Assembly: GCA_020632495.1 (NCBI GenBank)
Contig: JACKFL010000006.1
Coordinates: 780,032-844,031, forward strand
Direction of reading: 5' to 3'
Length of the DNA stretch: 64,000 nucleotides
DNA from: Candidatus Omnitrophota bacterium
GTDB lineage: Bacteria; Omnitrophota; Gorgyraeia; Zapsychrales; Zapsychraceae
The notes beneath the pieces are model-generated. The model was not told the DNA's origin. It searched no databases and saw nothing but the letters and a program-made list of their open reading frames with translations. Positions 3,581-24,045 of this stretch are shown in pieces; within the stretch, counting starts at the first letter, position 1, and every line of letters begins with the position of its first letter. The position numbers were made by a program, and so were the translations under genes.

Positions 3581-4785
3581 TGAAGGCAAAAAAGAAAAAA
3601 ATCGGATATGTGGTATCGCTGTTTCCCTGCTGGTCGGAAACTTTCATTCTCAATGAAATCATCGAGCTGAGCAAGGCCGGCTACGACATCACCATTTTCT
3701 CCATCCGCAATGATCTGGAGAAGTACACGCAGGAAAAGGCCAAGCCCTACCTGGCCCGTACGCACTATATTAAGGTAGGTCGAATGGTGTTGTCCTATTT
3801 CCGCTGGCTGCTGCGTAAACCCGGGGTGCTGCTGTCGTGGACTCTCAAAGTCCTATCGGCCAGTCTCGGCAACGTTCGAATATTTCACAAGAATGTCTGG
3901 TGTGTGCTGGTCGCCGCTTATTTTGCCGATCTGGCCCGGGATGAGGAATTGAAGCACCTCCATGCGCATTTCGCCACCTATCCGGCCCTGGTGGCCACCG
4001 TGATGTCCAAGCTCACCGGGATTGATTACACGCTGACCACCCACGCCCACGACATCTTTCTCGACAAGACCTTGTTGCGCGAGAAAATCGGGGCGGCCAA
4101 GGCCGTTGCCACGATTTCGCAATACAACCGGCGCTATCTGGCCGAGCATTGCGGTGAGGACATCCTTCCCAAAATTCATATCGTCCACTGCGGACTGGAC
4201 CTTTCCGAGTGGGATTACCAGCCGCATCCCAACGGGCATCATCCGCCGTCCATCGTGTGTGTGGGACGGTTGACCCAGATGAAGGGCTTTGAAAATCTTA
4301 TCCATGCCCTGAACCTGATCAAGAATGAGCAGGACTTTCGCTGTCACATCGTAGGCGACGGCGATCTGCGGCCCCGGTTTGAGCAACTGATCGCCGAATA
4401 CGGACTGGAGGGACGCGTCATCCTGGAAGGGGTCCTCGACAGCGCGGAGGTCCGCAAACGGATCAAGGAGGCGCACATCTTCGCCGTGCCTTCGGTGTGG
4501 GATGACACCGACGGCCAGGACGGTATCCCGTTGGTGCTGATGGAGGCGCTGGCCGTGGGCACGCCGGCCGTGGCCTCACGCATATCGGGCATACCCGAGC
4601 TGGTGATCGACGGGCAGACCGGACTGCTGGCCGAGCCCGGCGATGTGGATGCGTTGGCCGACAAGATCCGGCATCTGCTTTGCGACAAAGACCTGCGCGC
4701 GCGGCTGGCGACGCGGGGACGGGAGCAGATAGAAAGAGAATTCGATATCGCCAAGAACGCCAGACAACTGGCCAAACTGTTTTAA
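3580..4785 (+). CDS. GT4 glycosyltransferase (WcaL-like architecture)
   Basis: 401-aa intact ORF. N-terminal YVVSLFPCWSETFILNEI. C-terminal GT4 core VPSVWDDTDGQDGIPLVLMEALAVGTPAVASRISGIPELV. Start overlaps previous stop (TAATG). Confidence 0.85.
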   Translation: MKAKKKKIGYVVSLFPCWSETFILNEIIELSKAGYDITIFSIRNDLEKYTQEKAKPYLARTHYIKVGRMVLSYFRWLLRKPGVLLSWTLKVLSASLGNVRIFHKNVWCVLVAAYFADLARDEELKHLHAHFATYPALVATVMSKLTGIDYTLTTHAHDIFLDKTLLREKIGAAKAVATISQYNRRYLAEHCGEDILPKIHIVHCGLDLSEWDYQPHPNGHHPPSIVCVGRLTQMKGFENLIHALNLIKNEQDFRCHIVGDGDLRPRFEQLIAEYGLEGRVILEGVLDSAEVRKRIKEAHIFAVPSVWDDTDGQDGIPLVLMEALAVGTPAVASRISGIPELVIDGQTGLLAEPGDVDALADKIRHLLCDKDLRARLATRGREQIEREFDIAKNARQLAKLF

Positions 4786-4793
4786 GGGCACGC

Positions 4794-6941
4794 ATGATGT
4801 TGCTATCCATACTCCGTCGCGATTTGTACCCGCGCGCCGCGCGCTGCGCGGTGCCCGTTGTTGTCGGTCTGCTGGCTATGGCCGTGCCGGCAGCCCACGG
4901 AGAGTTGATCAAGATCGAGATTCCTGAGCAGATCAAATCCTACTTGGACGAGCGTCACTATAATCCCGCGGAGATCGACGGATTGTCGCTGCCGCCGAAT
5001 ACAAATGATCAGCGGACCTATTTTATCGACGGCACCAACGGCAATGATGAGTGGAACGGACTCTTTCCCCGCCACACGCACGGCGACAACGGTCCCTATA
5101 AAACCATCTCCAAGGCGACCGGGCGTTACGACAATCACAAACACGGGGAGCGCGTACTGATTCGCGGAGGCTACTACCGGGAGGGATTCGGACTGGGAAA
5201 TTTGACCGGGACGGCGGATGAAGATCATGTGACGACCTTCGCTCCTTATGGCGACGGCGAAGTGGTCCTCGATCTCAGCGACACCAAGGGCCTGGATGAA
5301 TTCACCGTTTTTGACGGCGACGTCTGGATGGCCAAGGTCAACGAGAATTGGTTTGCCCATCCGAAAAGCAATGTCGACTGGGCCGTGATGGACTGGAATC
5401 ATCGCTGCTGTCGTGAGGCCATAGGATATAACGGAACGGACAATGGGAAAAAAAGCGGCCGGACGGCACAGCTCGTTGATTCATCCAAAGATTTCGCTGA
5501 GTACAAGAAGGAGCACGGAAAGGGGCGGACGGATTTTATCGGAGCCACCGTATGGAATATTACCGACGGCTCCTGGGCCAAGGTGACCTCAGTGGCCACT
5601 ACGCAAAAGAAGAACGACACGCTGAATTTGACGCCGTTGACCGGCGGGCAGAGCAATGTCTTCAATCCGGGGGATGAATACGCGGTTTACCAGTTGGATA
5701 GCGATGGGAAGTTTGCCAATGTCAAAGACACCTTTTACATCAAATCGGTCAACGGCGAACCGCGTACCCGCCACATCATCGCCAACAGCTCAGACTGGGA
5801 CAACAGCCGCGTGCCCATTTATCTATCCGGCAAGAATTTTTACTTTTACGGGCTAACCATCGTAGGCGCGCCTTCGATCGGCGTGATGACCCTGGGCGAC
5901 GAACAGAGCGTCGTCTTTGAGAAATGCCGGTTTCTGTTCACGGGAAAACACGGTACATCACAGTTCGGTAAAAATATCAAGTCGGTTAAGTGGCTGAAGA
6001 ACTTCTTCTACGCGACCGTTATGATGAACTGGCCGCGGGGCAATACATGGGGCGGGAACGGAGGTTGGCCGAACTCGGTGGCATCGGCGCGTGTGGAGAA
6101 CTCCGAAATGTCGGGAAATATCGTCATGAACGGCGGCGGTGAGGGCATGAATAACGTGGCCCTTTTCCGGGACAACATTATTGTCGATAACTACAGCATG
6201 AATGTGTACTTGGGAGACATTCCGAATATCGAAGGCGGCTTTGAAATTTCACACAACGATGTGATCTTCACCGGTTATCGTGAGGAGGATGCCCTCGACC
6301 GGTTTTATCTGGACGGGTATTACAACGGGTATCAACGCAATTATGTCAAAATGCATCCCAACGGGATTACCATCGGGCTGGAAAAAAGCGGCGGGACCGC
6401 GCCGCCGGGCGGATTTCATATCCATCACAACAATGTGATCGGTTGTTGGAACGGGATTAACGGGTATTTCGAGGTTCCGACTGCCGGTTATCAGAATTCG
6501 ATTATTGAAGACAACACCGTGGTCCTGATGACGGCCCAGGACCGTAAGTGGCTGTTGTATTTCGACAGCGCCGGTATGCAGCTGCGGGCCCGCAAAGGGG
6601 CGGACTTCAATACAGTGATCCGGCGAAACCGGGTTATCGGCGCGGACAATACCGACGGACGGCATCATCTGGTTTACATCCGCGGGACCGATTTCGATGT
6701 CCTGGACGTCGATCACAACATCTATTCCTTCCCGGGGCACGATTCCTTCAGAACCGATAAGGGGATCAAGAATTTTGGACAGTGGCAGAAACTGACCGGT
6801 TACGACCGGAATTCCGTATTCACCGAGGACGCCGGACTGGTGGGACAGGATTGGTCGGACTCCTCCAAGATATTCCGCAAGCATTTGCAGGTGCGGGAAG
6901 GTGCGGACCAGGAGCAGGGGATCGGGGCAGGATCAAAATAG
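4794..6941 (+). CDS. Secreted right-handed parallel beta-helix repeat protein (possible polysaccharide lyase/epimerase-type fold)
   Basis: ATG at 4794 gives a signal peptide MMLLSILRRDL...VVVGLLAMAVPAAHG. The body has beta-helix-style features: DGTNGNDEWNG..GPYKTISKA..RVLIRGGYYREG, and repeated N/G/H-rich turns (HIHHNNVIGCWNGINGY, IIEDNTVV, VIRRNRVIG). The 4680 start in the ORF track overlaps the upstream gene and is unlikely. Confidence 0.65.
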   Translation: MMLLSILRRDLYPRAARCAVPVVVGLLAMAVPAAHGELIKIEIPEQIKSYLDERHYNPAEIDGLSLPPNTNDQRTYFIDGTNGNDEWNGLFPRHTHGDNGPYKTISKATGRYDNHKHGERVLIRGGYYREGFGLGNLTGTADEDHVTTFAPYGDGEVVLDLSDTKGLDEFTVFDGDVWMAKVNENWFAHPKSNVDWAVMDWNHRCCREAIGYNGTDNGKKSGRTAQLVDSSKDFAEYKKEHGKGRTDFIGATVWNITDGSWAKVTSVATTQKKNDTLNLTPLTGGQSNVFNPGDEYAVYQLDSDGKFANVKDTFYIKSVNGEPRTRHIIANSSDWDNSRVPIYLSGKNFYFYGLTIVGAPSIGVMTLGDEQSVVFEKCRFLFTGKHGTSQFGKNIKSVKWLKNFFYATVMMNWPRGNTWGGNGGWPNSVASARVENSEMSGNIVMNGGGEGMNNVALFRDNIIVDNYSMNVYLGDIPNIEGGFEISHNDVIFTGYREEDALDRFYLDGYYNGYQRNYVKMHPNGITIGLEKSGGTAPPGGFHIHHNNVIGCWNGINGYFEVPTAGYQNSIIEDNTVVLMTAQDRKWLLYFDSAGMQLRARKGADFNTVIRRNRVIGADNTDGRHHLVYIRGTDFDVLDVDHNIYSFPGHDSFRTDKGIKNFGQWQKLTGYDRNSVFTEDAGLVGQDWSDSSKIFRKHLQVREGADQEQGIGAGSK

Positions 6942-14246: not shown

Positions 14247-15398
14247 ATGAGTATAATTCTCTGGATCTCGATATTTTTAATACTTTGGTGTTACCTGCTT
14301 TATCCGTTATCGGCGGCGGCGTTCGCGCGGGCGGCCGAGCGGAAAGTGGCCAAAGGGGAGTATTGCCCCACCGTCTCGGTGGTCATTTCGGTCTGGAATG
14401 AAGAGGATGTGATCGAGGCCAAGCTGAGGAACTTTCTGGCGCTGGATTATCCGGTCGATAAGTTCGAAATCCTGATCGGTTCCGACGGCTCCACCGATCG
14501 GACCAACGCGATCGTAAAAAGTTTTACCGATCCGCGGGTGCGTCTGATCGAACATGCCGAACGTCGAGGCAAGATGGCGACGTTGAATGACCTGGTCGCC
14601 AAGGCGCGACATGAAGTTATCGTATTCACCGACGCGCGGCAGGAGTTTGCCGCCGACGCGATCCGTCAGCTGGTGGCAAACTTCGCGGACCAGAGCGTCG
14701 GATGCGTGTCCGGAGAACTGATGTTCTCGCGGAAAGAGGGAGCAACGGCGCGCGGCATCAATCTCTACTGGAATTATGAGAAATTTATGCGCAAATGCGA
14801 GAGCCGCATCCACTCGATGCTGGGCGCGACCGGCGCGGTCTATGCGATCCGGAAGGCGCTCTACCCGACGGTTCCCGCGGAGGTGGTCTTGGACGACGTG
14901 TACATCCCGCTGAAGATTGTGCAGCAAGGCTACCGGGCGATCTTCGACGGGGAGGCCAAGGCTTACGATGAGGTGGCGGACAGTCCCCGCGAAGAGTACC
15001 GCCGCAAGGCGCGGACTTTGTATGGCAATTGGCAGGTGTTCCGGATATTTATCGGTCTGTTCAATCCCCTTGCCAGTCCGGTCGCCGTTCAGCTCTTTTC
15101 GCACAAGTTTCTGCGGGTCGCGGCGCCGTTTTTGCTTATTGGAATTTTTTGTCTCAACATGCTGTTGTGGAGTGAACCGTTTTACCGCGGATTGATGACT
15201 CTGCAACTGCTTTTTTACGTCATGGCCGCGGTCGGCGGGTTGGCAAGGCACCAAAAGTATGGTATGCTCAGGATCTTGTCCAAAGTGTGTTACATACCGT
15301 ATGTCTTCTGTTTATTGAACTTTTCGGCCCTTATAGGATTCGTCCGTTTCATGAGTGCCGGTCAGCAGATTACCTGGGAAAAGGCGAGGGCCCGATAA
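14247..15398 (+). CDS. Membrane-embedded GT2 glycosyltransferase (synthase-like, N- and C-terminal TM helices)
   Basis: 383 aa. TM, then VSVVISVWNEEDVIEAKLRNFLALDYP..ILIGSDGSTDRT...FTDARQ, then C-terminal TM helices. Stop overlaps the exosortase ATG (TAATG). Confidence 0.85.
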   Translation: MSIILWISIFLILWCYLLYPLSAAAFARAAERKVAKGEYCPTVSVVISVWNEEDVIEAKLRNFLALDYPVDKFEILIGSDGSTDRTNAIVKSFTDPRVRLIEHAERRGKMATLNDLVAKARHEVIVFTDARQEFAADAIRQLVANFADQSVGCVSGELMFSRKEGATARGINLYWNYEKFMRKCESRIHSMLGATGAVYAIRKALYPTVPAEVVLDDVYIPLKIVQQGYRAIFDGEAKAYDEVADSPREEYRRKARTLYGNWQVFRIFIGLFNPLASPVAVQLFSHKFLRVAAPFLLIGIFCLNMLLWSEPFYRGLMTLQLLFYVMAAVGGLARHQKYGMLRILSKVCYIPYVFCLLNFSALIGFVRFMSAGQQITWEKARAR

Positions 15399-16231
15399 TG
15401 GACTATGTGATGAAATTAGCGCGAATGCATCAAAAACTGCTCTTGGCATTAATTGTCATGATCGCAGCTTACTTTCCCACCATTTTGTGGATGTATGACC
15501 GCTGGATTGCCCGTGATTCGTATTACTCACACGGATTTCTCATTCCGATCGTCAGCCTGGCTTTGATCTACTGGAACAAGGAGGAGCTGGCCGAGATCAA
15601 ATGGAAAGAGTCCCCGTGGGGGATGCGGCTGATTATTGCCGGGGCGGTCCTGCACCTGCTGGCGAGCCATCCGAATGTCCGCATTTACTTTGTGTCAGGG
15701 TTTTCGATGCTGGTGTTGATTTGCGGTCTGGTGTTGTACCTCTACGGCGAGGAGATCTTCAGGCGGATCCTTTTTCCGCTGTTTTTCCTGATCTTCATGG
15801 TGCCGATGCCGCTGGTTGTCATCAACAAGATCAGTCTCCAGTTGAAAATGTTTGCCGCGGAATTGGCGACGATGGTGCTGAATAATATGGGCATCCAGGC
15901 CCTGCGGGACGGGAGTATCATCAAAATGCGGCACGCCCATGTCACGGTCGACGATGTGTGCAGCGGGTTGCGGTCGCTGATTTCGCTCACGGCGCTGGGC
16001 AGCATCTGCGCCTACTGGCTGAAGGCGGCGATGTGGAAACGGCTCACGCTGTTTGCCTCGACGATCCCGATTGCCATTATCACCAACATGTGCCGGGTGG
16101 TGGCGTTGTCCGCGATCAGCGAGATTTGGGGGACGGAGTACGCCGAGGGTTTCGTCCATGACTTTTTGGGATTTATGGTATTCGCCCTTGCGTTTATTAT
16201 GCTGATGGCGGTCGGGAAGCTGCTGGAATGA
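15398..16231 (+). CDS. Exosortase (XrtA/EpsH-like)
   Basis: ATG at 15398: MDYVMKLARMHQKLLLALIVMIAAYFPTILWMYDRWIARDSYYSHGFLIP. Catalytic-type motifs present: DDVCSGLRSLISL (Cys/Arg), IITNMCRVVAL, FVHDFLGFMVF. About 8 TM helices. Confidence 0.85.
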   Translation: MDYVMKLARMHQKLLLALIVMIAAYFPTILWMYDRWIARDSYYSHGFLIPIVSLALIYWNKEELAEIKWKESPWGMRLIIAGAVLHLLASHPNVRIYFVSGFSMLVLICGLVLYLYGEEIFRRILFPLFFLIFMVPMPLVVINKISLQLKMFAAELATMVLNNMGIQALRDGSIIKMRHAHVTVDDVCSGLRSLISLTALGSICAYWLKAAMWKRLTLFASTIPIAIITNMCRVVALSAISEIWGTEYAEGFVHDFLGFMVFALAFIMLMAVGKLLE

Positions 16232-16857
16232 AAATCAACAAATTTGTCATCATCCTGTTACTCATCGTGGGGGCGGGGGCTGTGTCCTGGACGACCTATC
16301 TGAAGGAATTCAACGAGGAGGACACCGTCAGCATCCACTCGTTTCCGAAGGAAATCAACGGCTGGGTTTCCGAGGAATTGCCGATCACGGAGGACGAATA
16401 CGCAATCCTGGAGACCCGCAACGTATTTACCCGCAAGTATACTGGCCCGAAGGGCCAGATCGTATATTTCTTTACCGTGTATTCCCAGTATAACCGCAAG
16501 GTCGCCCACCCCCCGGAGGTGTGCTACACCGGCAGTGGGATCAAGGTCGTCAGCAACACCGTGGACGCCATCCCTATCCCCGAGCACAACGTAACCATAA
16601 AAGCCCACAAACTACGGCTGGAACGGCGCCAGCTGAAGCAGGTGGCCTACTATTGGTTCAAAGTCGGTGATTCTTTTACGCCCAGCTATTGGCAGCAGCA
16701 GCTGCGTATAGCCATCAAGAACCTCCTCGGGCGCCCCGAAGGCAGCGCCCTTATCCGTGTCTCCGCGGTTTATAATGATGACGACCAGCAGGCCGTGGAA
16801 GACATCAAAGAGTTCACCCGCCTGGTTTTACCCGCCATCTACAAGCACCTGCCTTAA
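16228..16857 (+). CDS. EpsI-family exosortase-associated protein
   Basis: 209 aa. N-terminal anchor, then FPKEINGWVSEELPITEDEYAILETRNVFTRKYT...VAHPPEVCYTGSG...YYWFKVG...ALIRVSA. ATGA overlap with exosortase. Confidence 0.8.
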   Translation: MKINKFVIILLLIVGAGAVSWTTYLKEFNEEDTVSIHSFPKEINGWVSEELPITEDEYAILETRNVFTRKYTGPKGQIVYFFTVYSQYNRKVAHPPEVCYTGSGIKVVSNTVDAIPIPEHNVTIKAHKLRLERRQLKQVAYYWFKVGDSFTPSYWQQQLRIAIKNLLGRPEGSALIRVSAVYNDDDQQAVEDIKEFTRLVLPAIYKHLP

Positions 16858-16895: not shown

Positions 16896-16974
16896 TTGTT
16901 GCGTGTCCACAACAAATGTTTAATTAATTGAACATTAGTTGGGATGGTCTGTCTAGGACTGTCCGGGTAAGTCC
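16896..16974. promoter_or_regulatory. Cluster of palindromes 100-180 bp upstream of the sigma-54 promoter (candidate enhancer/UAS sites)
   Basis: TTGTTGcgtgtccaCAACAA (16896..16915). AATGTTtaattaattgAACATT (16915..16936). GGACTgtccgggtaAGTCC (16956..16974). The position fits bEBP enhancer geometry; binding is not demonstrated. Confidence 0.3.
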
Positions 16975-17073
16975 CGCCTGAGCTTGCTTTTTAGTTCCCC
17001 CAGAATTACGTAAGTCATTGAAATATATAGTAATCGTGTGCAGGTCGATAAATATCTCCCGGTCTATCAGGAT

Positions 17074-17089
17074 TGGCACGCATATTGCT
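17074..17089 (+). promoter_or_regulatory. Sigma-54 (-24/-12) promoter
   Basis: TGGCACgcataTTGCT matches the TGGCAC-N5-TTGCW consensus. It lies 51 nt upstream of the ATG at 17140, and a sigma-54-dependent activator is encoded 5.5 kb downstream. Confidence 0.65.
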
Positions 17090-17139
17090 CCCTACAGAGG
17101 CAAGTATACATTCTTGGAAACGCTTTCACGAGGAACGAA

Positions 17140-17994
17140 ATGACAAAAAAGAGACGACAGCTTAAGAAAAGACAACGCATCCTGACGACGATTATGGTGA
17201 TGCTTTTTGGCGTATGCGTGGCTTCTGCCTGGGCGACGGTATCCTTCGTCAAGACCGAGCCGGCTTCCCAATATACGGCTCAGACCGCTGATGCCGGTCG
17301 CACGGAAGAGGTAATCCAGCCAGCCAAGTCCCACGCGCCGGAGCCGTCAACCCTGGCCTTGTTCGGGGGAGGCTTCTTGGGCATGGTGATCAGCATCGTC
17401 CGCCAGACCTATGAGGCGGCCAAACGGGCCTTCGATATCGTCGCCAGCACCTTGGGTGCCATTATCCTGTCACCGTTGATGCTCTTGGCCGTGATTCTGG
17501 TCAAGTGCACCTCCAAAGGGCCGATCATCTATTCGCAAACCCGGGTCGGTAAGGATGGCAAGCATTTCAAGATCTACAAGTTCCGTACCATGCGGGTGGA
17601 TGCGGAAAAGAACACCGGACCGGTGTGGGCCGCCAAGAACGACAAGCGACTGACTCCGGTAGGGGCATTCCTGCGCAAATCCCACATTGATGAGTTGCCG
17701 CAGTTGTTCAATGTACTGAAAGGGGAAATGTCCGTCATCGGTCCCCGTCCGGAACGTCCCGTATTCGTTCAGGAATTCAGCGAAGTTATCCCGAACTACA
17801 CCCGCCGTCTGCTGGTCAAGCCCGGAATTACCGGTTTGGCGCAGGTTTGGCACCGTTACGATGAAACCATTCAGGACGTGAAGAAGAAAGTTCGTTACGA
17901 CCTGCTCTACATAAAGAAAATGTGCATTTGGGCCGACTTGAATATCATCCTGCGGACGGTCCGCGTGGTGATTACCGGGGAAGGGGCCCGCTAG
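17140..17994 (+). CDS. Polyprenyl-phosphate sugar phosphotransferase (priming sugar transferase, WbaP/PglC-type catalytic domain) with an N-terminal extension carrying a PEP-CTERM-like motif
   Basis: RBS GAGGA 5 nt before the ATG at 17140. Catalytic core KRAFDIVASTLGAIILSPLMLLAVILVKCTSKGPIIYSQTRVGKDGKHFKIYKFRTMRVDAE...DELPQLFNVLKGEMSVIGPRPERP. N-terminal extension: MTKKRRQLKKRQR, TM, about 30-aa loop, PEPSTLALFGGGFLGMVISIVRQ. An alternative in-frame ATG at 17383 would remove the extension. Confidence 0.8.
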   Translation: MTKKRRQLKKRQRILTTIMVMLFGVCVASAWATVSFVKTEPASQYTAQTADAGRTEEVIQPAKSHAPEPSTLALFGGGFLGMVISIVRQTYEAAKRAFDIVASTLGAIILSPLMLLAVILVKCTSKGPIIYSQTRVGKDGKHFKIYKFRTMRVDAEKNTGPVWAAKNDKRLTPVGAFLRKSHIDELPQLFNVLKGEMSVIGPRPERPVFVQEFSEVIPNYTRRLLVKPGITGLAQVWHRYDETIQDVKKKVRYDLLYIKKMCIWADLNIILRTVRVVITGEGAR

Positions 17995-18085: not shown

Positions 18086-18946
18086 ATGAAGAAATTAGTT
18101 TTCGCACTCACAATGACACTTTCGACAGCATTCATCGCGACAAGTGTTATGGCTGATCCTGGACCCTACGACACAAGCCATTGTACCGATACCAATGGCG
18201 GCGTGTTCACGGCCTGTGAAGCCAACAACAACGTTGATATCTTCAACGCGATCAACAAAGTATTCACGGACAGAGGCCTGGCGTCTCCCGGGTTTACAGA
18301 CAATGAAGGAACGGACAGCCTGCAATATACAGGCGCCAACGAATTCTGGCAAGAAATCGCTGACGGTGATTCTTCTGAATTCGCCTTCATCTCTATTACA
18401 GCGTCCAACGTGAACCAACTGGGTGTTTTCCCGGCTGGTGGATCCGCAGCGGCATCGACATTCTTCACGCTGTCGTTTACCGGCGACCTGTTTACCGGAA
18501 ACGGTAGCATGGCCAATCCGTACCCGGGTTTCATTAACCCGCTGGCAGGGTCAAATTTCGGATTCTCACTCAAGTCTGACCCGGCCGTCGGCCCGGATAT
18601 GATTTGGGCTTCCGAAGTTGCCCAGAACTCAGACGGAATCGACCACATGCTGACTTTTCAACTGCAGGATTTGGCTAAGCAGAGCGTTTACATCAAGGTT
18701 GATTACAACAACGACGGTGACCTGACCAATGACGGTGACAACGTGATCGAAGTCGTTTTGGACGAAGACACGTTCCTGCTGGCCTGGGAAGACAAGCCGC
18801 AAAATACTTTCGACTCCGACTACAACGATGCCATTTTCTTGGTAACAAGACTTGAGCCGACCGTTGTTCCGGAACCGATGAGCATGGTTCTCTTCGGCGG
18901 TGGTTTGGCCGGATTGGCAGCAACTCGTAAAAGAAAAATCAGCTAA
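18086..18946 (+). CDS. PEP-CTERM sorting-domain protein with DUF4114-like domain
   Basis: RBS AAGGGGAG before the ATG at 18086. Signal peptide MKKLVFALTMTLSTAFIATSVMA. DUF4114-like FLLAWEDKPQNTFDSDYNDAIFLV. C-terminus VPEPMSMVLFGGGLAGLAATRKRKIS. Confidence 0.85.
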   Translation: MKKLVFALTMTLSTAFIATSVMADPGPYDTSHCTDTNGGVFTACEANNNVDIFNAINKVFTDRGLASPGFTDNEGTDSLQYTGANEFWQEIADGDSSEFAFISITASNVNQLGVFPAGGSAAASTFFTLSFTGDLFTGNGSMANPYPGFINPLAGSNFGFSLKSDPAVGPDMIWASEVAQNSDGIDHMLTFQLQDLAKQSVYIKVDYNNDGDLTNDGDNVIEVVLDEDTFLLAWEDKPQNTFDSDYNDAIFLVTRLEPTVVPEPMSMVLFGGGLAGLAATRKRKIS

Positions 18947-19030: not shown

Positions 19031-19312
19031 ATGAAAAAGACAACCGAAGTTAAGACACTGAAGGGGTTATTTCTTGCCGCGCTTATTCCGTTCATCACGG
19101 CATGCAACGGTGGCGGGGGAGGTACGGCCCTTCTTGGTACCGGCAGTTTGTTCAGCGGCCTAGGCGGCAATGGGGATACCGGTTCAGGATTACTCCCCGG
19201 TGGCGGCGATGAAATCGCGTCACTTACCAACCCCGAACCGGCCAGCATGATATTGCTCGGCAGTGGAATGGCTGCTTTGACGTACTTCAATAATAAGAAG
19301 AGAATCAAGTAA
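19031..19312 (+). CDS. 93-aa glycine-rich mini-protein with lipobox signal peptide and PEP-CTERM tail
   Basis: RBS GGAGGG. MKKTTEVKTLKGLFLAALIPFITAC (lipobox ITAC), Gly-rich core NGGGGGTALLGTGSLFSGLGGNGDTGSGLLPGGG, tail NPEPASMILLGSGMAALTYFNNKKRIK. Confidence 0.8.
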   Translation: MKKTTEVKTLKGLFLAALIPFITACNGGGGGTALLGTGSLFSGLGGNGDTGSGLLPGGGDEIASLTNPEPASMILLGSGMAALTYFNNKKRIK

Positions 19313-19350
19313 GATTCATTCTGAACATTGAATCCAGGACAAAAACAAAT

Positions 19351-19389
19351 AAGGCAAGCTATTACCCAATAGCTTGCCTTATTTTTTTA
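19351..19389 (+). terminator. Rho-independent terminator
   Basis: 13-bp perfect stem AAGGCAAGCTATT / AATAGCTTGCCTT, loop ACCC, followed by ATTTTTTTA. Confidence 0.85.
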
Positions 19390-19587: not shown

Positions 19588-20454
19588 ATGAACAAAGAGA
19601 AGAATCCAACACTTAAGGTATTTCCCCTGCTCCGTATCTCCATCAATACGTTGTTCAGCAACGGTCCGATTGTCTTTCCGTACTTGGTTATCCTGTTCGT
19701 CCAATTTCTCCTGCTCGAGATTCTGTACTTCTTTCCGCAATGGCCTTTGAATCAATTCTTTGACCCGCTCGTTAGTAAGCTGGAGTCGCCGATGTTTATG
19801 CATTACCCGCTGAACCTGGCGCTTTTGCAAAAGATGTATTTTCAGGCCTACATACCGGTCTACATCTTTTTCTCCAGTTTCTTTGTATGTGTGGCCATTG
19901 CCGCCATCAAAGATATCAACGAGGACCAAAAACCGAACGTCAGGCAGATCATGGTGCGCATGCTGCCGTTCTACCTATATATCATCGTGACCGCCGTCCT
20001 CATATATGCCTTCAGCTATCTTTTCTCGGAGAGCTTCGGTATGATTGAAAGTCGGGCCGATCAGATTCGCTCGACCGCGGGGCCATTCTTCTGGCTTAAG
20101 CAGACAATCCTGCAGGGCGGTCCGTATTTCCGGCTCTTGCTTAACGTTGTCGCGGTGACCTTGTTTGCCTATGTCTTTCCGCTCATAGCGATTGAGCGGC
20201 GCAACCTGTTCGTGGCGCTGTTGGAGAACATTAAATATGTCATTACCGCACCGATTAAGACTTTTATGATCGTGCTGCTGCCCACCGTCGTTTTTGCGGT
20301 GGTGCTGCTCGCGCGCAAGCACGTTCCCTTTGAAGGGGAATTTCCGGAGATGCGGGCGATCATGATCGCCTTCAGCATTTTGGTTATGGTGATCATCGAT
20401 GCGGTGGTTTATACATCATTAACGATGTTTTATTTAGTAAGGAAGGGCCAATAA
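19588..20454 (+). CDS. Polytopic membrane protein, unknown function
   Basis: 288 aa, about 6 hydrophobic helices, no motif recognised. Stop is immediately followed by the next ATG (TAAATG). Confidence 0.6.
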   Translation: MNKEKNPTLKVFPLLRISINTLFSNGPIVFPYLVILFVQFLLLEILYFFPQWPLNQFFDPLVSKLESPMFMHYPLNLALLQKMYFQAYIPVYIFFSSFFVCVAIAAIKDINEDQKPNVRQIMVRMLPFYLYIIVTAVLIYAFSYLFSESFGMIESRADQIRSTAGPFFWLKQTILQGGPYFRLLLNVVAVTLFAYVFPLIAIERRNLFVALLENIKYVITAPIKTFMIVLLPTVVFAVVLLARKHVPFEGEFPEMRAIMIAFSILVMVIIDAVVYTSLTMFYLVRKGQ

Positions 20455-21360
20455 ATGAAAAGGGCCGTCGTCGCATTTATTCTGATTTTAGCTGGAGTGT
20501 TTGCCCTGTTTACCATGTTGGACCGTAACGGGGACTTTGTCGCTGAACGCGATCTATGGCGTATCAATAATAGGTTCGCCAAGGCGTCCCGGGATCCGCA
20601 GATTGTGCCTGACTCCACTTTTCGTCAGATTGTCGCTGACTATAACGCCTTTATCCAGCAGTATCCCGAGTCGCATCTGGCCCGGGTGGCGCATATTCTG
20701 ATCGGCCGTGTCTATATGGTGAAAGGGGACTTGGCCAAGGGGCGGGAAAAGTATGAAGAAGTGGCCAAGCTGTACGCCGATGAGCCGAAGATTGCGGTCG
20801 AAGCCGTGGCGGATATCGGCCGTACCTACGCCATCGAGAACAATGCCCAGGGGGTGATCCAGAATTACGAACGGGTTATCCGTGAGTATCCGTTGACGAT
20901 GCACGGTATGCAGGCGCCAATCTTGTTGACCAAGTTGCATGCCAGCCGCGGTGACACGCAGCGCGCCCAGGATGCCTACCGGGCGGGTATCGCGCATTAT
21001 CAGAAGCTGATCAAGGAGTATCCCGGCGGTTCCACGGAATTTAACGCGCTGCGCTCGATGGGAACCTTGTACCTGGCGGGTGGTGACCGGCGCAAAGCGA
21101 TCGAAACCTTCGGAAAGGTCTTGATCAATTTTTCCGACCAGAAATACATGACGTCGAAAAGGGTGGCCACGATTGTGCGCACCATTAATACTGTTGCCAT
21201 CGTGGATCTCAAGGATTATGACTTTCCTTTGTCTATTTACCGTGAGTTTATCAAGGCGCATCCGCAGCATCCGTACCGCCCGCGCTTTGAGCAGATCATA
21301 GAAAGTATTGAGTTGTTGAAAGAAAGTAAGGTTACGCTCGATACGGCACCCCAACGATAG
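20455..21360 (+). CDS. Membrane-anchored TPR-like repeat protein
   Basis: N-terminal anchor MKRAVVAFILILAGVFALFTML. Repeated helical hairpins with YPES/YPLT/YPGG spacing (QQYPESHLARVAHILIGRVY, REYPLTMHGMQAPILL, KEYPGGSTEFNALRSMGTLY). Confidence 0.65.
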   Translation: MKRAVVAFILILAGVFALFTMLDRNGDFVAERDLWRINNRFAKASRDPQIVPDSTFRQIVADYNAFIQQYPESHLARVAHILIGRVYMVKGDLAKGREKYEEVAKLYADEPKIAVEAVADIGRTYAIENNAQGVIQNYERVIREYPLTMHGMQAPILLTKLHASRGDTQRAQDAYRAGIAHYQKLIKEYPGGSTEFNALRSMGTLYLAGGDRRKAIETFGKVLINFSDQKYMTSKRVATIVRTINTVAIVDLKDYDFPLSIYREFIKAHPQHPYRPRFEQIIESIELLKESKVTLDTAPQR

Positions 21361-21368
21361 CGACGGAC

Positions 21369-22658
21369 ATGAAATCGGCCATTCAGGAACTGACACAAAC
21401 AACGCTCTTTCAAAAAATCGGCGATATCTGCGCGACGGTGAACACAGCCCTTGGCGCCCAAGACCTATTGGAGAAATCGCTTCACAAAATTATGGACTTG
21501 TACGGGGCGACCCGTGGTTCCGTCTTTATCGCAGAAGGCGGGAGCGGCAAGTTGGTTTTGAAGGCTTCGTACGGCATGAAGCTCAAAGAGGAGCAATCCA
21601 TGGTCAAGCAACTGGGCGAGGGAATCGTCGGCCGGGTGGCGAAGTTAAAACAGCCGTTGTATGTGGAAGACATCGCGTCGGATGAGCGGTTTCAGAATTT
21701 CAAGCTGCGGGGTAGTTACGCCACGCCGTCGTTTATCTGCGCGCCGCTGCTGGTCAAGGATCAACTGATCGGCGTGATCAATATTGCCGATAAGGAAACC
21801 GGGAGCCGCTTTAACGAAACCGACATGCAACTCCTGGATTTTCTCACCACGCAGGTGGCCCTGAACTACCGGCGGATCGAATTGCATCAGAAATTCAAAC
21901 GCATCGTACGGGAAAAAGAAAATCTGAAGGACCGGCTCGGTCAGACCGATCAGGAAAAACTGAACCTGAAGAAACAAATCGTGGTCCATGAAAAACTGGC
22001 GACCATTGGAAAACTGGCTGGCGGTATCGCGCATGAGTTCAATAATCCGCTCGACGGTGTCATGCGTTACACGAATTTATGCCTGGATCACATCCAGGAC
22101 GATGAGGTGGTGCGGGGGTATCTGTTGGAGGTCAAGCACGGCCTGAATCGTATGGCCAATATTGTGCGCAACCTGTTGGCCTGTTCTCGGGACGAGCATC
22201 CGGCGTCGCAGTCGGTGGAAATCAAACAGGCCTTTGAGCATGCCTTGTCCGGCAAAATGAACGACATTGTCCGGAAGAATATTATTGTCGAGCGCAAGAT
22301 TGCGTCGAATATGCCGGCCATACCCGATTTGGGTATCGAGCGGATCTTTTCCAATCTGATTACCAATGCAGTCGACGCCATTGAACGTGACGGGCGGATC
22401 TCAATGGCGGCCGACATGTACGCGCAAGTCCTGGTCATCAGTTTCGCGGATACAGGACGGGGGATCGAGGAAGAGAATTTGGAGAAAATATTCGAACCGT
22501 TCTATACTACGAAAGATATTGACAAAGGTTGTGGGTTGGGCTTGACGATTGTCGGAGAGATCGTCAAGTCTTATGAGGGAACCATTAATATCGAAAGTGA
22601 ATTCGGGAAGGGGACGACCTTCACGATTAAAATACCTGTTCCGGAATACGATGGATAA
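21369..22658 (+). CDS. Soluble GAF-domain sensor histidine kinase
   Basis: GAF (GSVFIAEGGSGKLVLKASYG...GIVGRVAKLKQPLYVEDI...FICAPLLVKDQLIGVINI). H-box GGIAHEFNNPLDGV. HATPase N/G boxes (NLITNAVDA, DTGRGI, GCGLGLTIV). No TM segment. Confidence 0.85.
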   Translation: MKSAIQELTQTTLFQKIGDICATVNTALGAQDLLEKSLHKIMDLYGATRGSVFIAEGGSGKLVLKASYGMKLKEEQSMVKQLGEGIVGRVAKLKQPLYVEDIASDERFQNFKLRGSYATPSFICAPLLVKDQLIGVINIADKETGSRFNETDMQLLDFLTTQVALNYRRIELHQKFKRIVREKENLKDRLGQTDQEKLNLKKQIVVHEKLATIGKLAGGIAHEFNNPLDGVMRYTNLCLDHIQDDEVVRGYLLEVKHGLNRMANIVRNLLACSRDEHPASQSVEIKQAFEHALSGKMNDIVRKNIIVERKIASNMPAIPDLGIERIFSNLITNAVDAIERDGRISMAADMYAQVLVISFADTGRGIEEENLEKIFEPFYTTKDIDKGCGLGLTIVGEIVKSYEGTINIESEFGKGTTFTIKIPVPEYDG

Positions 22659-24045
22659 AAGGGACAATCAAAATTACAGTATGCTCATCGTCGATGATGA
22701 GCCCCTGATTCGTGAATCGCTATTTGAGATCTTCAAGATCGAGGGGTTTCGGGTGCAGATGGCATCCACCGCTGAGGAAGCCCTGATCCTTATGGAAAAG
22801 AATCCGGTCCACATTGTCATCACGGACCTGAAGCTTCCGAACATGTCCGGACTGGAGCTTTTGCAACAGGTTAAGAAGGATTACGAGCAGGCCGAGGTGA
22901 TCGTTATTACCGGCTATGGATCCATCGAAACCGCGGTGGAGGCGATGAAGATCGGGGCCTTTGAGTACATCACCAAGCCGATCAATGACAGCGAAATCAA
23001 ACTGATCATCGCCAATATTGTGCAAAAGATCCGTTTGATAGAAGAGAATACCGCGTTGAAGGGCCTCATAGCGAAGGACCGGCGACAATCCTTTGCGGGG
23101 ATGATCGGTTCCAGCGAGCGGATGCAGTCGGTCTACAATATCATTGATTCGGTTGCGTCGACAAATGCTACAATCCTGATTACAGGCGAGAGCGGTACCG
23201 GCAAGGGAATGGTGGCCAAAGCCGTTCACCAAAGCGATGAGCGGCGGCGTAAACGGCCGTTTGTGGAAATCAGCTGCGGAGCGCTGTCCGAAACTCTTTT
23301 GGAAAGCGAATTGTTCGGGCACGTCAAGGGGGCCTTCACCGGTGCGATCAAGGATAAAGAAGGCCGTTTCGAGTACGCCAAGGGAGGCACGATCTTCCTC
23401 GACGAAATCGATGCTTTTTCGCCCAGTCTTCAGGTTAAGCTTCTGAAGGTTCTGCAGGACGGACTATTCGAGCGGGTCGGTGAAAATGTTTCCCGCAAAG
23501 CGGATGCCCGAATTATTGTCGCCACCAATCAACAGTTGACCAAGCTGGTGGACGAAGGCGAGTTTCGTGAAGATTTGTATTACCGGATTAATGTCATCGC
23601 AATCCAAATGCCGCCTCTGCGGGACCGGCGCGACGACATTAAACCGTTGGCGGATCATTTTCTGGAGATGTTCAGCCGTGCGAACAACAAGACGGTTAAG
23701 GAAATGTCCGACGAGGTATTGGCCCTGTTCAAGTCATACAGCTGGCCGGGCAACATTCGTGAGCTGGAAAATGCGATTGAGGGGGCGGTGATCATGGCGA
23801 AGGGGGATGTGATTCAACTGTCGGACATCCCGAACAGCACCAAGTTTGAGGAGGAAGACGGGAGCAAGAGCGCCGAAATCAAATCTCTCAAACAGGTGAC
23901 CGAACAGCCGGAGCGGGATCATATTATATCCGTTCTCAACGATTGTAATTGGAACCGCAATAAGGCGGCGGCCGCACTGGGGGTCAACCGGACGACGCTT
24001 TACAATAAAATGAAAAAATACAATATCCTGGATGCCAAAAAGTAA
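22651..24045 (+). CDS. Sigma-54-dependent response regulator (NtrC family; PrsR-like context)
   Basis: ATG at 22651 overlaps the kinase stop. Receiver [14 protein letters not shown]...[15 protein letters not shown]+ [30 protein letters not shown]-terminal [26 protein letters not shown]. Confidence 0.9.

Follow-up and report, generated by a model that had tools for sequence, protein, structure and literature searches.

The 64,000-nucleotide window analysed here (the whole stretch at positions 780,032 to 844,031 of contig JACKFL010000006.1, assembly GCA_020632495.1, from a Candidatus Omnitrophota bacterium) holds a gene for a phosphoglycosyl transferase (PGT), the priming enzyme of an exosortase-linked polysaccharide locus, whose product carries a complete PEP-CTERM sorting signal in front of its catalytic core. 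This is a known kind of signal in a position without precedent, and it is real, translated, ancient and lineage-wide. The coordinates and sequence strings given in the original prediction, which had been made from the letters of this window alone (the open reading frame (ORF) at 17140-17994, the PEP motif at 17338-17346 and the tails of two downstream cargo proteins), were all correct. The gene is composed of the following parts.

17130..17134, plus strand: Shine-Dalgarno sequence GAGGA, 5 nucleotides ahead of ATG 17140, read from the sequence
17140..17994, plus strand: PGT gene, encoding a 284-residue polyprenyl-phosphate sugar-phosphate transferase with an N-terminal PEP module (TIGR03025, PF02397)
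17140..17235, plus strand: predicted cleavable Sec signal peptide, residues 1-32, with a basic n-region, a hydrophobic core and A-W-A
17236..17337, plus strand: predicted periplasmic spacer, residues 33-66 (mean pairwise identity 0.23; predicted local distance difference test score, pLDDT, below 50)
17338..17346, plus strand: PEP motif, P67-E68-P69 (near-invariant columns)
17347..17421, plus strand: transmembrane (TM) helix STLALFGGGFLGMVISIV, R88-Q89 and the T-Y-x3 linker into the core, residues 70-94 (0.66 identity; matched by the cargo-tail profile)
17422..17991, plus strand: PglC-like catalytic core, residues 95-284 (PDB sequence matches, invariant columns)

The whole protein scores 321 bits against TIGR03025 (exopolysaccharide polyprenyl glycosylphosphotransferase; cut-off 295.55), and residues 95-278 match PF02397 (Bac_transf) with 236.5 bits, above threshold; it is the only Bac_transf protein of the window. 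Membership of the EpsB_2 family (TIGR03013) is ruled out, the match being partial (the C-terminal half only, profile positions 240-443) and below the cut-off (279.4 vs 393.35 bits). K95-R96-x-x-D99 opens the re-entrant helix of the core, which breaks at S111-P112, all of these being invariant or nearly so, and the Asp-Glu dyad D184-E185 is invariant in 88 sequences. Among PDB sequences, the core matches WbaP (E 2.4e-36) in an alignment that opens at residue 87, and PglC (8E37/8G1N, E about 1e-30) in one that opens at residue 94. In enzymes of the PglC type, the re-entrant helix has to start at the cytoplasmic face of the membrane. The enzyme of the window is not monotopic, having two extra hydrophobic helices (residues about 14-32 and 70-87) before the re-entrant one. 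An AlphaFold2 model has a helix at residues 3-36 and two more, 80-109 and 111-124, on either side of a break at residue 110; residues 80-109 form a single confident helix (pLDDT 81-94), suggesting that the spanning helix is closely joined to the catalytic core.

The 94 residues that precede this core are laid out as a complete small PEP-CTERM protein: the basic MTKKRRQLKKRQR, a hydrophobic stretch running to A-S-A-W-A, a hydrophilic spacer of 34 residues and the segment APEPSTLALFGGGFLGMVISIVRQ, after which TYEAAKRAFD marks the start of the Bac_transf domain. The first helix had been described as a signal anchor; the helix and its basic N-terminus stand, but a role as a permanent anchor seems doubtful. 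Among the best 120 database matches (59-90% identity, mostly 277-285 residues), which served as our set of homologues, the helix closes with a small-x-small site (A30 in 96, W31 in 107 and A32 in 117 of the 120), and AEA, VFA, AQA, AGA, AFA or ALA replace A-W-A at the same place in other lineages. Because a conserved small-x-small site after a strongly basic n-region is the signature of signal peptidase I, and a plain anchor has no need of such a site, the helix is more readily read as a cleavable Sec signal peptide than as an anchor that stays in place. Its predicted removal would leave a mature enzyme starting at T33 in the periplasm. The spacer that follows is the least conserved part of the protein and varies from about 7 to more than 60 residues in homologues, with semi-conserved ends (T-L-S-F-V-K-P-x-D-A at the start and [KR]-[AS]-R-A ahead of PEP). 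The former end, in the more general form T-[LV]-S-F-V-K-P-x-[DE]-A (17236-17265, residues 33-42), coincides with the predicted mature N-terminus (T33 in 93/120, S35 in 95/120, K38 in 76/120 and an acidic residue at position 41 in 100/120), and members with short spacers are without it. Residues 70-87 are hydrophobic and are followed by R88-Q89 in the window and by R-R in most homologues. The topology that we infer from this layout has PEP at the outer face, residues 70-87 spanning the membrane, and positions 88-91 together with K95-R96 in the cytoplasm.

The likeness to PEP-CTERM proteins was measured with hidden Markov models (HMMs) and by comparison with the two cargo proteins encoded directly downstream.

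18086..18946, plus strand: cargo 1, with a signal peptide, a DUF4114-like region and a C-terminal PEP-CTERM signal (residues 261-284 of 286; PF07589 23.5 bits, TIGR02595 23.0 bits)
19031..19312, plus strand: cargo 2, a 93-residue Gly-rich protein with a lipobox (FITAC) and a C-terminal NPEP-type PEP-CTERM signal (PF07589 20.7 bits, TIGR02595 18.1 bits)

The transferase reaches 26.1 bits with PF07589 (gathering score 20.7) and 18.0 bits with TIGR02595 as a full protein, rising to a significant 20.2 when residues 1-95 are scored by themselves (cut-off 16). Both models are thus above their cut-offs, with scores comparable to those of the cargo, and the tripartite layout is present, with PEP, then hydrophobic residues 70-87 where such domains have a helix of about 14-18 residues, and then R88. 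The cargo proteins end in VPEPMSMVLFGGGLAGLAATRKRKIS and NPEPASMILLGSGMAALTYFNNKKRIK, and the close match of the internal segment to these tails, put forward in the original prediction, was borne out by a lineage-specific HMM built from 43 C-terminal cargo tails of the window and 23 related loci, with no PGT segment in the build. Run on 3667 stop-to-stop ORFs of at least 45 residues from the same sequences, this model picked out cargo tails and the internal segment of 26/26 PGTs (17.4-37.0 bits), and no other ORF among the 3667 reached a positive score. Module and cargo have in common the consensus P-E-P-[SA]-[TS]-[ML]-x-L-[FL]-G-[SG]-G-[LIF]-x-G-[ML]. The flanks are specific to the PGT: R at -2 (16/26) and A at -1 (22/26), where the cargo have V/T/P and V/N/I, so that R-A before PEP is unlike every cargo tail, and R-R-T-Y after the helix. 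The module is also more uniform than the tails (mean identity 0.66 vs 0.51). Judged by its sequence, the segment is a PEP-CTERM domain that fails the defining feature of C-terminal position, since 195 residues of cytoplasmic enzyme follow it.

The extension was present in all 120 homologues. Near-invariant columns run through the motif and the helix (A66 118, P67 116, E68 120, P69 120, F75 117, G76 118, G78 120, G81 117, M82 116, R88 116 and Y91 120 of the 120; R65 is kept in 103), and PEP starts exactly 28 residues ahead of KRxFD in the 99/120 homologues where a pattern search placed both. Mean pairwise identity is 0.30 in the signal peptide, 0.23 in the spacer, 0.66 in the block of PEP, helix and R-R, 0.57 in the re-entrant helix and 0.76 in the rest of the catalytic domain. 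The contrast between the PEP-helix block and the signal peptide and spacer points to a constraint far beyond what a plain membrane anchor needs.

This protein-level conservation upstream of M82, together with the GAGGA sequence and a conserved sigma-54 promoter (see below), indicates that the extension is translated from ATG 17140. It had been pointed out that an internal ATG at 17383 (M82) has GGAGG 10 nucleotides upstream and might be the sole start, in which case the PEP motif would be untranslated leader. The GGAGG is indeed there, M82 is conserved in 116/120 homologues, and the public gene call for an identical protein starts downstream of ATG 17140, at M19. On the other hand, the letters of GGAGG are the codons of Gly76-78 and are not conserved: most loci have GGTGGTGGA, GGCAGCGGN and similar, GGGGGAGG occurs in only 3/26, and Ser77 is always encoded by AGY, one step from GGY, which suggests a mutational path instead of a ribosome-binding site under selection. 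An internal start at M82 was therefore rejected for want of a conserved Shine-Dalgarno site across the 26 loci. Such a start would also halve the helix and leave unexplained why W31 (107/120), A32 (117/120), R65 (103/120), E68 and P69 (120/120 each) are kept in proteins about 60% identical, and both the promoter and GAGGA are correctly placed for ATG 17140. With a start at M19, the PEP motif would remain part of the protein. We therefore regard it as highly improbable that the extension is not made. The public call itself (266 residues) drops the basic n-region (17140-17193) that is conserved in homologues, and its start is probably 18 codons too short.

To survey the distribution, a first set of 25 loci (24 with upstream DNA) was obtained by a pattern search with one genome per species, and a second, looser scan with A-P-E-P-x-[ST]-x-x-L-F-G-x-G gave 10 more among the matches listed, a sample and not a census. 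The fusion occurs in at least 35 species-level genomes, all of Omnitrophota type. The second scan also served as a control: the 119 stretches listed included about 90 ordinary PEP-CTERM tails ending 22-36 residues later, from Acidobacteriota, Proteobacteria, Planctomycetota, Nitrospira and others, and about a dozen further chance matches. No PGT fusion outside Omnitrophota-type loci was among these 119 matches (the pattern requiring A-PEP and LFGxG), and the distance from A66 to the stop was exactly 219 residues in all 14 PGT fusions listed. The loci are titled Omnitrophota or, in third-party bins with identical gene order, "uncultured Planctomycetales" (L006, L008, L012, L013, L015, L020, L022, L034, L043, L077, L130 and L141); given the same locus, the latter are probably Omnitrophota as well. 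The one exception, L040 (JBLINE010000003.1), is labelled Lysobacterales, has 34% G+C and the Omnitrophota-type order of GT2, exosortase, EpsI and transferase, and is probably mis-binned.

The original prediction had also offered a recent in-frame fusion of a small cargo gene as an explanation. This was rejected: with at least 35 species-level genomes and proteins down to about 60% identical, the fusion is, on the comparative evidence, ancient and maintained under strong purifying selection. No free-standing copy of the 94-residue module was found by a profile search of 1.84 billion representative proteins. A free-standing module as surviving ancestor was therefore rejected; of the short matches examined, those with the R-R-T-Y / K-R junction are truncated or frameshifted transferases. 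A weak likeness, over most of the profile, to unrelated PEP-CTERM proteins of 80-90 residues agrees with the idea that a gene of this kind was fused, and the best explanation of the module appears to be that a small PEP-CTERM gene was joined, long ago, to the gene of a PglC-type PGT. The same search returned long proteins (P0130, of 2500 residues, P0138, P0143, P0145 and P0148) in which the PEP-helix part of the profile matches at 4-9 separate places; these could be run-together calls over tandem PEP-CTERM genes, or true internal signal repeats.

Three ways in which the original prediction might have failed (an insignificant HMM score, lack of conservation in orthologues and translation from the internal start only) were thus all examined, and the architecture withstood each of them. 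Its setting in the locus is as follows.

15398..16231, plus strand: exosortase (EpsH family) of no named subtype (PF09721 228.7 bits; TIGR02602 180.9 bits, cut-off 105.55)
16228..16857, plus strand: EpsI, exosortase-associated periplasmic protein (TIGR02914 99.8 bits, cut-off 42.8; PF11984 119.6 bits)
16910..16975, plus strand: candidate enhancer region, with AACA..TGTT..AACA (16910-16934) and three to four TGTC-type direct repeats about 10-11 nucleotides apart (16946-16975)
17074..17089, plus strand: sigma-54 (-24/-12) promoter TGGCACGCATATTGCT, perfect consensus, ending 50 nucleotides ahead of the ATG
19347..19384, no strand assigned: hairpin with a 17-bp stem and flanking T-runs on both strands, from a terminator scan
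20455..24045, plus strand: TPR protein, histidine kinase and PrsR-like sigma-54-dependent response regulator, syntenic in most loci

The exosortase and EpsI genes lie directly upstream of the PGT gene in 22/24 first-set loci with upstream DNA and in 8/10 of the second set, so that the adjacency noted in the window recurs, together with the PEP-TM-Arg module, in 30/34 loci. Cys189, Arg234 and His255 of the exosortase are invariant in 24 orthologues; against the XrtA model (TIGR03109) the protein of the window scores 188.2 bits, below the cut-off of 208. The conserved order runs from a polysaccharide deacetylase and a GT2 glycosyltransferase through exosortase, EpsI, the PEP-transferase and one to several PEP-CTERM cargo genes to a 288-residue membrane protein, the TPR protein, the histidine kinase, the sigma-54 response regulator and, last, a protein for which nothing but a weak likeness to the kinase was detected. 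The 288-residue multi-pass protein (19588-20454), which stands between the cargo and the TPR/kinase/regulator genes in most related loci, has no NCBIfam match, and neither does a 753-residue ORF (4680-6941) inside the glycosyltransferase cluster (at E <= 1e-5). Homologues of cargo 2 in L001-L024 (e.g. L001, 9893-10165) have about 90-130 residues, are Gly-rich and carry a lipobox ..[GA]-C, followed in most by a poly-Gly run, and an N-PEP-type PEP-CTERM signal at the C-terminus; the homologues listed, from 14 loci, conserve the Cys of the lipobox. Cargo 2 is unusual in having two membrane-anchoring or sorting signals at opposite ends.

The promoter at 17074-17089 is the sole match to TGGCAY-N5-TTGCW in the 64-kb window, and an equivalent site precedes the PGT start in 24/24 first-set loci with upstream DNA. 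The terminator scan found no hairpin of comparable strength inside the PGT-cargo unit; the one after cargo 2 likely ends the transcription unit, which would consist of PGT, cargo 1 and cargo 2. Scores are 414 bits for the response regulator with TIGR02915 (cut-off 502.6) and 96 bits for the kinase with TIGR02916, and the TPR/kinase/PrsR-like regulator genes likely control the promoter at 17074. The candidate enhancer lies roughly 100-160 nucleotides upstream of the promoter and may bind the PrsR-like activator (encoded at 22681-24045); its TGTC(N6-7) repeats and AACA/TGTT element, compared by eye only, recur at an equivalent position in most of the 24 related loci. A sigma-54 promoter and an upstream motif also precede proteobacterial PEP-CTERM genes (Haft et al., PMC1569441), and pepA is RpoN-dependent (PMC9850573).

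What could a sorting signal do on such an enzyme? We consider it probable that the module is recognized by the exosortase. This is the simplest account of the invariant P-E-P, the cargo-like helix face, the export machinery that would bring PEP to the outer face and the persistent adjacency of exosortase and EpsI. Beyond recognition, we tentatively favor a reading in which residues 1-94 are a functional exosortase-recognition module used for stable or slow-turnover docking, as a pseudo-substrate. The PrsR-like activator would fire the promoter at 17074 to give a single mRNA for the PGT and the two cargo proteins. The signal peptide would take the N-terminus of the PGT through Sec and be removed after A-W-A. 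The mature protein would consist of a short tail in the periplasm, PEP at the outer face, a single TM helix, R-R in the cytoplasm and, 7 residues further on, the catalytic domain. The adjacent exosortase (with EpsI) would then bind the PEP-TM helix within the membrane in the fashion of a cargo tail, and stable or slow-turnover binding would keep the enzyme responsible for the first lipid-linked sugar close to the exosortase, coupling polysaccharide initiation and PEP-CTERM protein processing in space and time.

Docking is preferred over productive cleavage because nothing is conserved in the piece that would be cut off, which can shrink to about 7-10 residues, because the flanks that are the PGT's own (R-A before PEP, R-R-T-Y after the helix) are absent from cargo tails, because the module is more uniform than those tails, and because the helix appears in the model as a structural part of the enzyme, 7 residues from the re-entrant helix. 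That the module escapes cleavage altogether is speculative. Several observations weigh against docking. The near-invariant PEP, as the presumed catalytic recognition site, suits a cleaved substrate equally; a few PGT members have SEP, PES, PEA or PDP in its place; the module resembles the cargo tails of its own genome no more closely than it does those from elsewhere (permutation p = 0.41), on which ground co-evolution with own-genome tails was rejected; and, of the exceptional loci, L025 lacks an exosortase gene within 8 kb, in L010 the distance is 6.5 kb, and at L043 none is seen in 2.2 kb of upstream sequence. To our knowledge, moreover, no representative of the lineage is in culture and little is established of exosortase biochemistry.

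The transferase could instead be a true exosortase substrate, with the periplasmic tail removed at PEP and perhaps moved to an acceptor, leaving a TM-anchored enzyme. Cleavage would then license or tune priming, or mark the enzyme for turnover, and polysaccharide initiation would need an active exosortase. The PEP motif and helix consensus are identical to those of cargo, E68 and P69 are kept in 120/120 homologues, the predicted signal peptide and the spacer would provide the exact topology of a substrate, the catalytic triad of the exosortase is conserved, and the control of EpsZ by EpsW (PMC12802240) offers a precedent for regulation of a priming PGT via another protein. However, the useful product of sortase-like chemistry is the N-terminal piece, which in the PGT varies and can be as short as about 7-10 residues, the conserved R-A ahead of PEP is found in no cargo tail, and trimming a short periplasmic tail off a cytoplasmic enzyme has no evident benefit, which leaves this option somewhat unlikely. 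Less likely again is an exosortase-independent relic of the old fusion, the helix of which would anchor, orient or dimerize the small transferase through a GxxxG-like face (FGxGxxG) suited to helix packing, with the cargo likeness due to common descent and similar membrane constraints. The continuity of the modelled helix with the catalytic core, the lack of same-genome co-variation with cargo tails and the one locus without an exosortase within 8 kb would all agree with this, as would the remark by Haft et al. that PEP-CTERM copies far from the C-terminus are possibly non-functional (PMC1569441). Yet an anchor would have no use for an invariant periplasmic P-E-P, or for a signal peptide and spacer that bring the motif outside; the misplaced copies reported in 2006 were more divergent, whereas the PGT copy is more conserved than cargo tails; and the tight synteny with exosortase and EpsI and the sigma-54 control shared with cargo hold in nearly all loci.

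We return to docking, and to its close relative in which the bound enzyme is switched by proteolysis. If either holds, a sorting signal has been co-opted as an adaptor or switch by which the exosortase holds, or proteolytically licenses, the priming enzyme in one membrane complex, a possibility that we put forward with reserve. The architecture hints at a physical link between the initiation of a sugar polymer and protein sorting that is apparently undescribed. NCBIfam (June 2026) contains no model for the combination of PEP module and PGT, and full-text literature searches, whose coverage did not include the 2012 exosortase/archaeosortase survey, returned no paper that describes the arrangement or joins PEP-CTERM with a phosphoglycosyl transferase, consistent with the novelty originally supposed. 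Source annotations of the homologues give only "sugar transferase" or a generic PGT name; precomputed Pfam matches record PF07589 together with PF02397 on 28/120, so that the pairing sits uncommented in the databases. Here lies a warning for annotation, as automatic pipelines name only the sugar transferase and sometimes clip its N-terminus.

Exosortases have been tied to exopolysaccharide loci via gene neighborhood since 2006, and the target of attachment and the reason for their travelling together are standing questions. A whole lineage is now seen to keep an exosortase signal on its priming transferase, more constant than on real cargo. If true, the proposed coupling would be the first physical link of exosortases with polysaccharide synthesis and the first case of a PEP-CTERM-class signal with a role beyond marking a passenger for export, and it would possibly add a control point at the committed step of polysaccharide synthesis. 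The arrangement also offers a defined pair for tests of interaction or cleavage (one enzyme, one signal, one exosortase), and a natural non-C-terminal signal with which to probe exosortase recognition and the cut site.

The module can be compared with several known systems. Like canonical PEP-CTERM cargo (PMC1569441; TIGR02595, PF07589), the PGT has a predicted signal peptide, a passenger, PEP, a TM helix and a basic cluster, its gene adjoins those of exosortase and EpsI, and a sigma-54 promoter lies tens of nucleotides before its start codon. In contrast, the signal of cargo ends the protein, while in the PGT 195 residues of enzyme follow; the passenger amounts to a short spacer, variable and without a domain; and the flanks K-x-R-A and R-R-T-Y are PGT-specific. 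PEP-CTERM copies are followed by a median of 3 further residues, 87% of them by fewer than 10, and the rare copies far from the C-terminus were found to be more divergent (PMC1569441), the opposite of what we see in the PGT (0.66 vs 0.51 for cargo tails).

With the small monotopic PGTs of the PglC type (8E37, 8G1N) the enzyme shares the KRxxD start, the Ser-Pro break and the Asp-Glu dyad. The membrane element of PglC is the re-entrant helix only, whereas the PGT of the window adds a predicted signal peptide and a membrane-spanning helix, which would make its N-terminus periplasmic. EpsB_2 (TIGR03013), the transferase of the XrtA/PEP-CTERM system, is likewise a Bac_transf-family enzyme genetically tied to an exosortase system, but it is a large multi-TM protein (model of about 443 positions) linked to the exosortase by gene neighborhood only, and we know of no PEP motif in it. 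In Aquincola, epsB2 is required for the associated floc and polysaccharide phenotype, and the polysaccharide genes are reported not to be RpoN1-regulated (PMC9850573); in the window, on the other hand, the priming enzyme itself stands under a cargo-type promoter. Finally, the EpsW-EpsZ pair of Myxococcus (PMC12802240) is a precedent for post-translational control of a priming transferase, and with it of the first step of polysaccharide synthesis, by protein contact. The partner in that pair is a response regulator of the cytoplasm and its target a large transferase, with neither a sorting signal nor a membrane protease involved.

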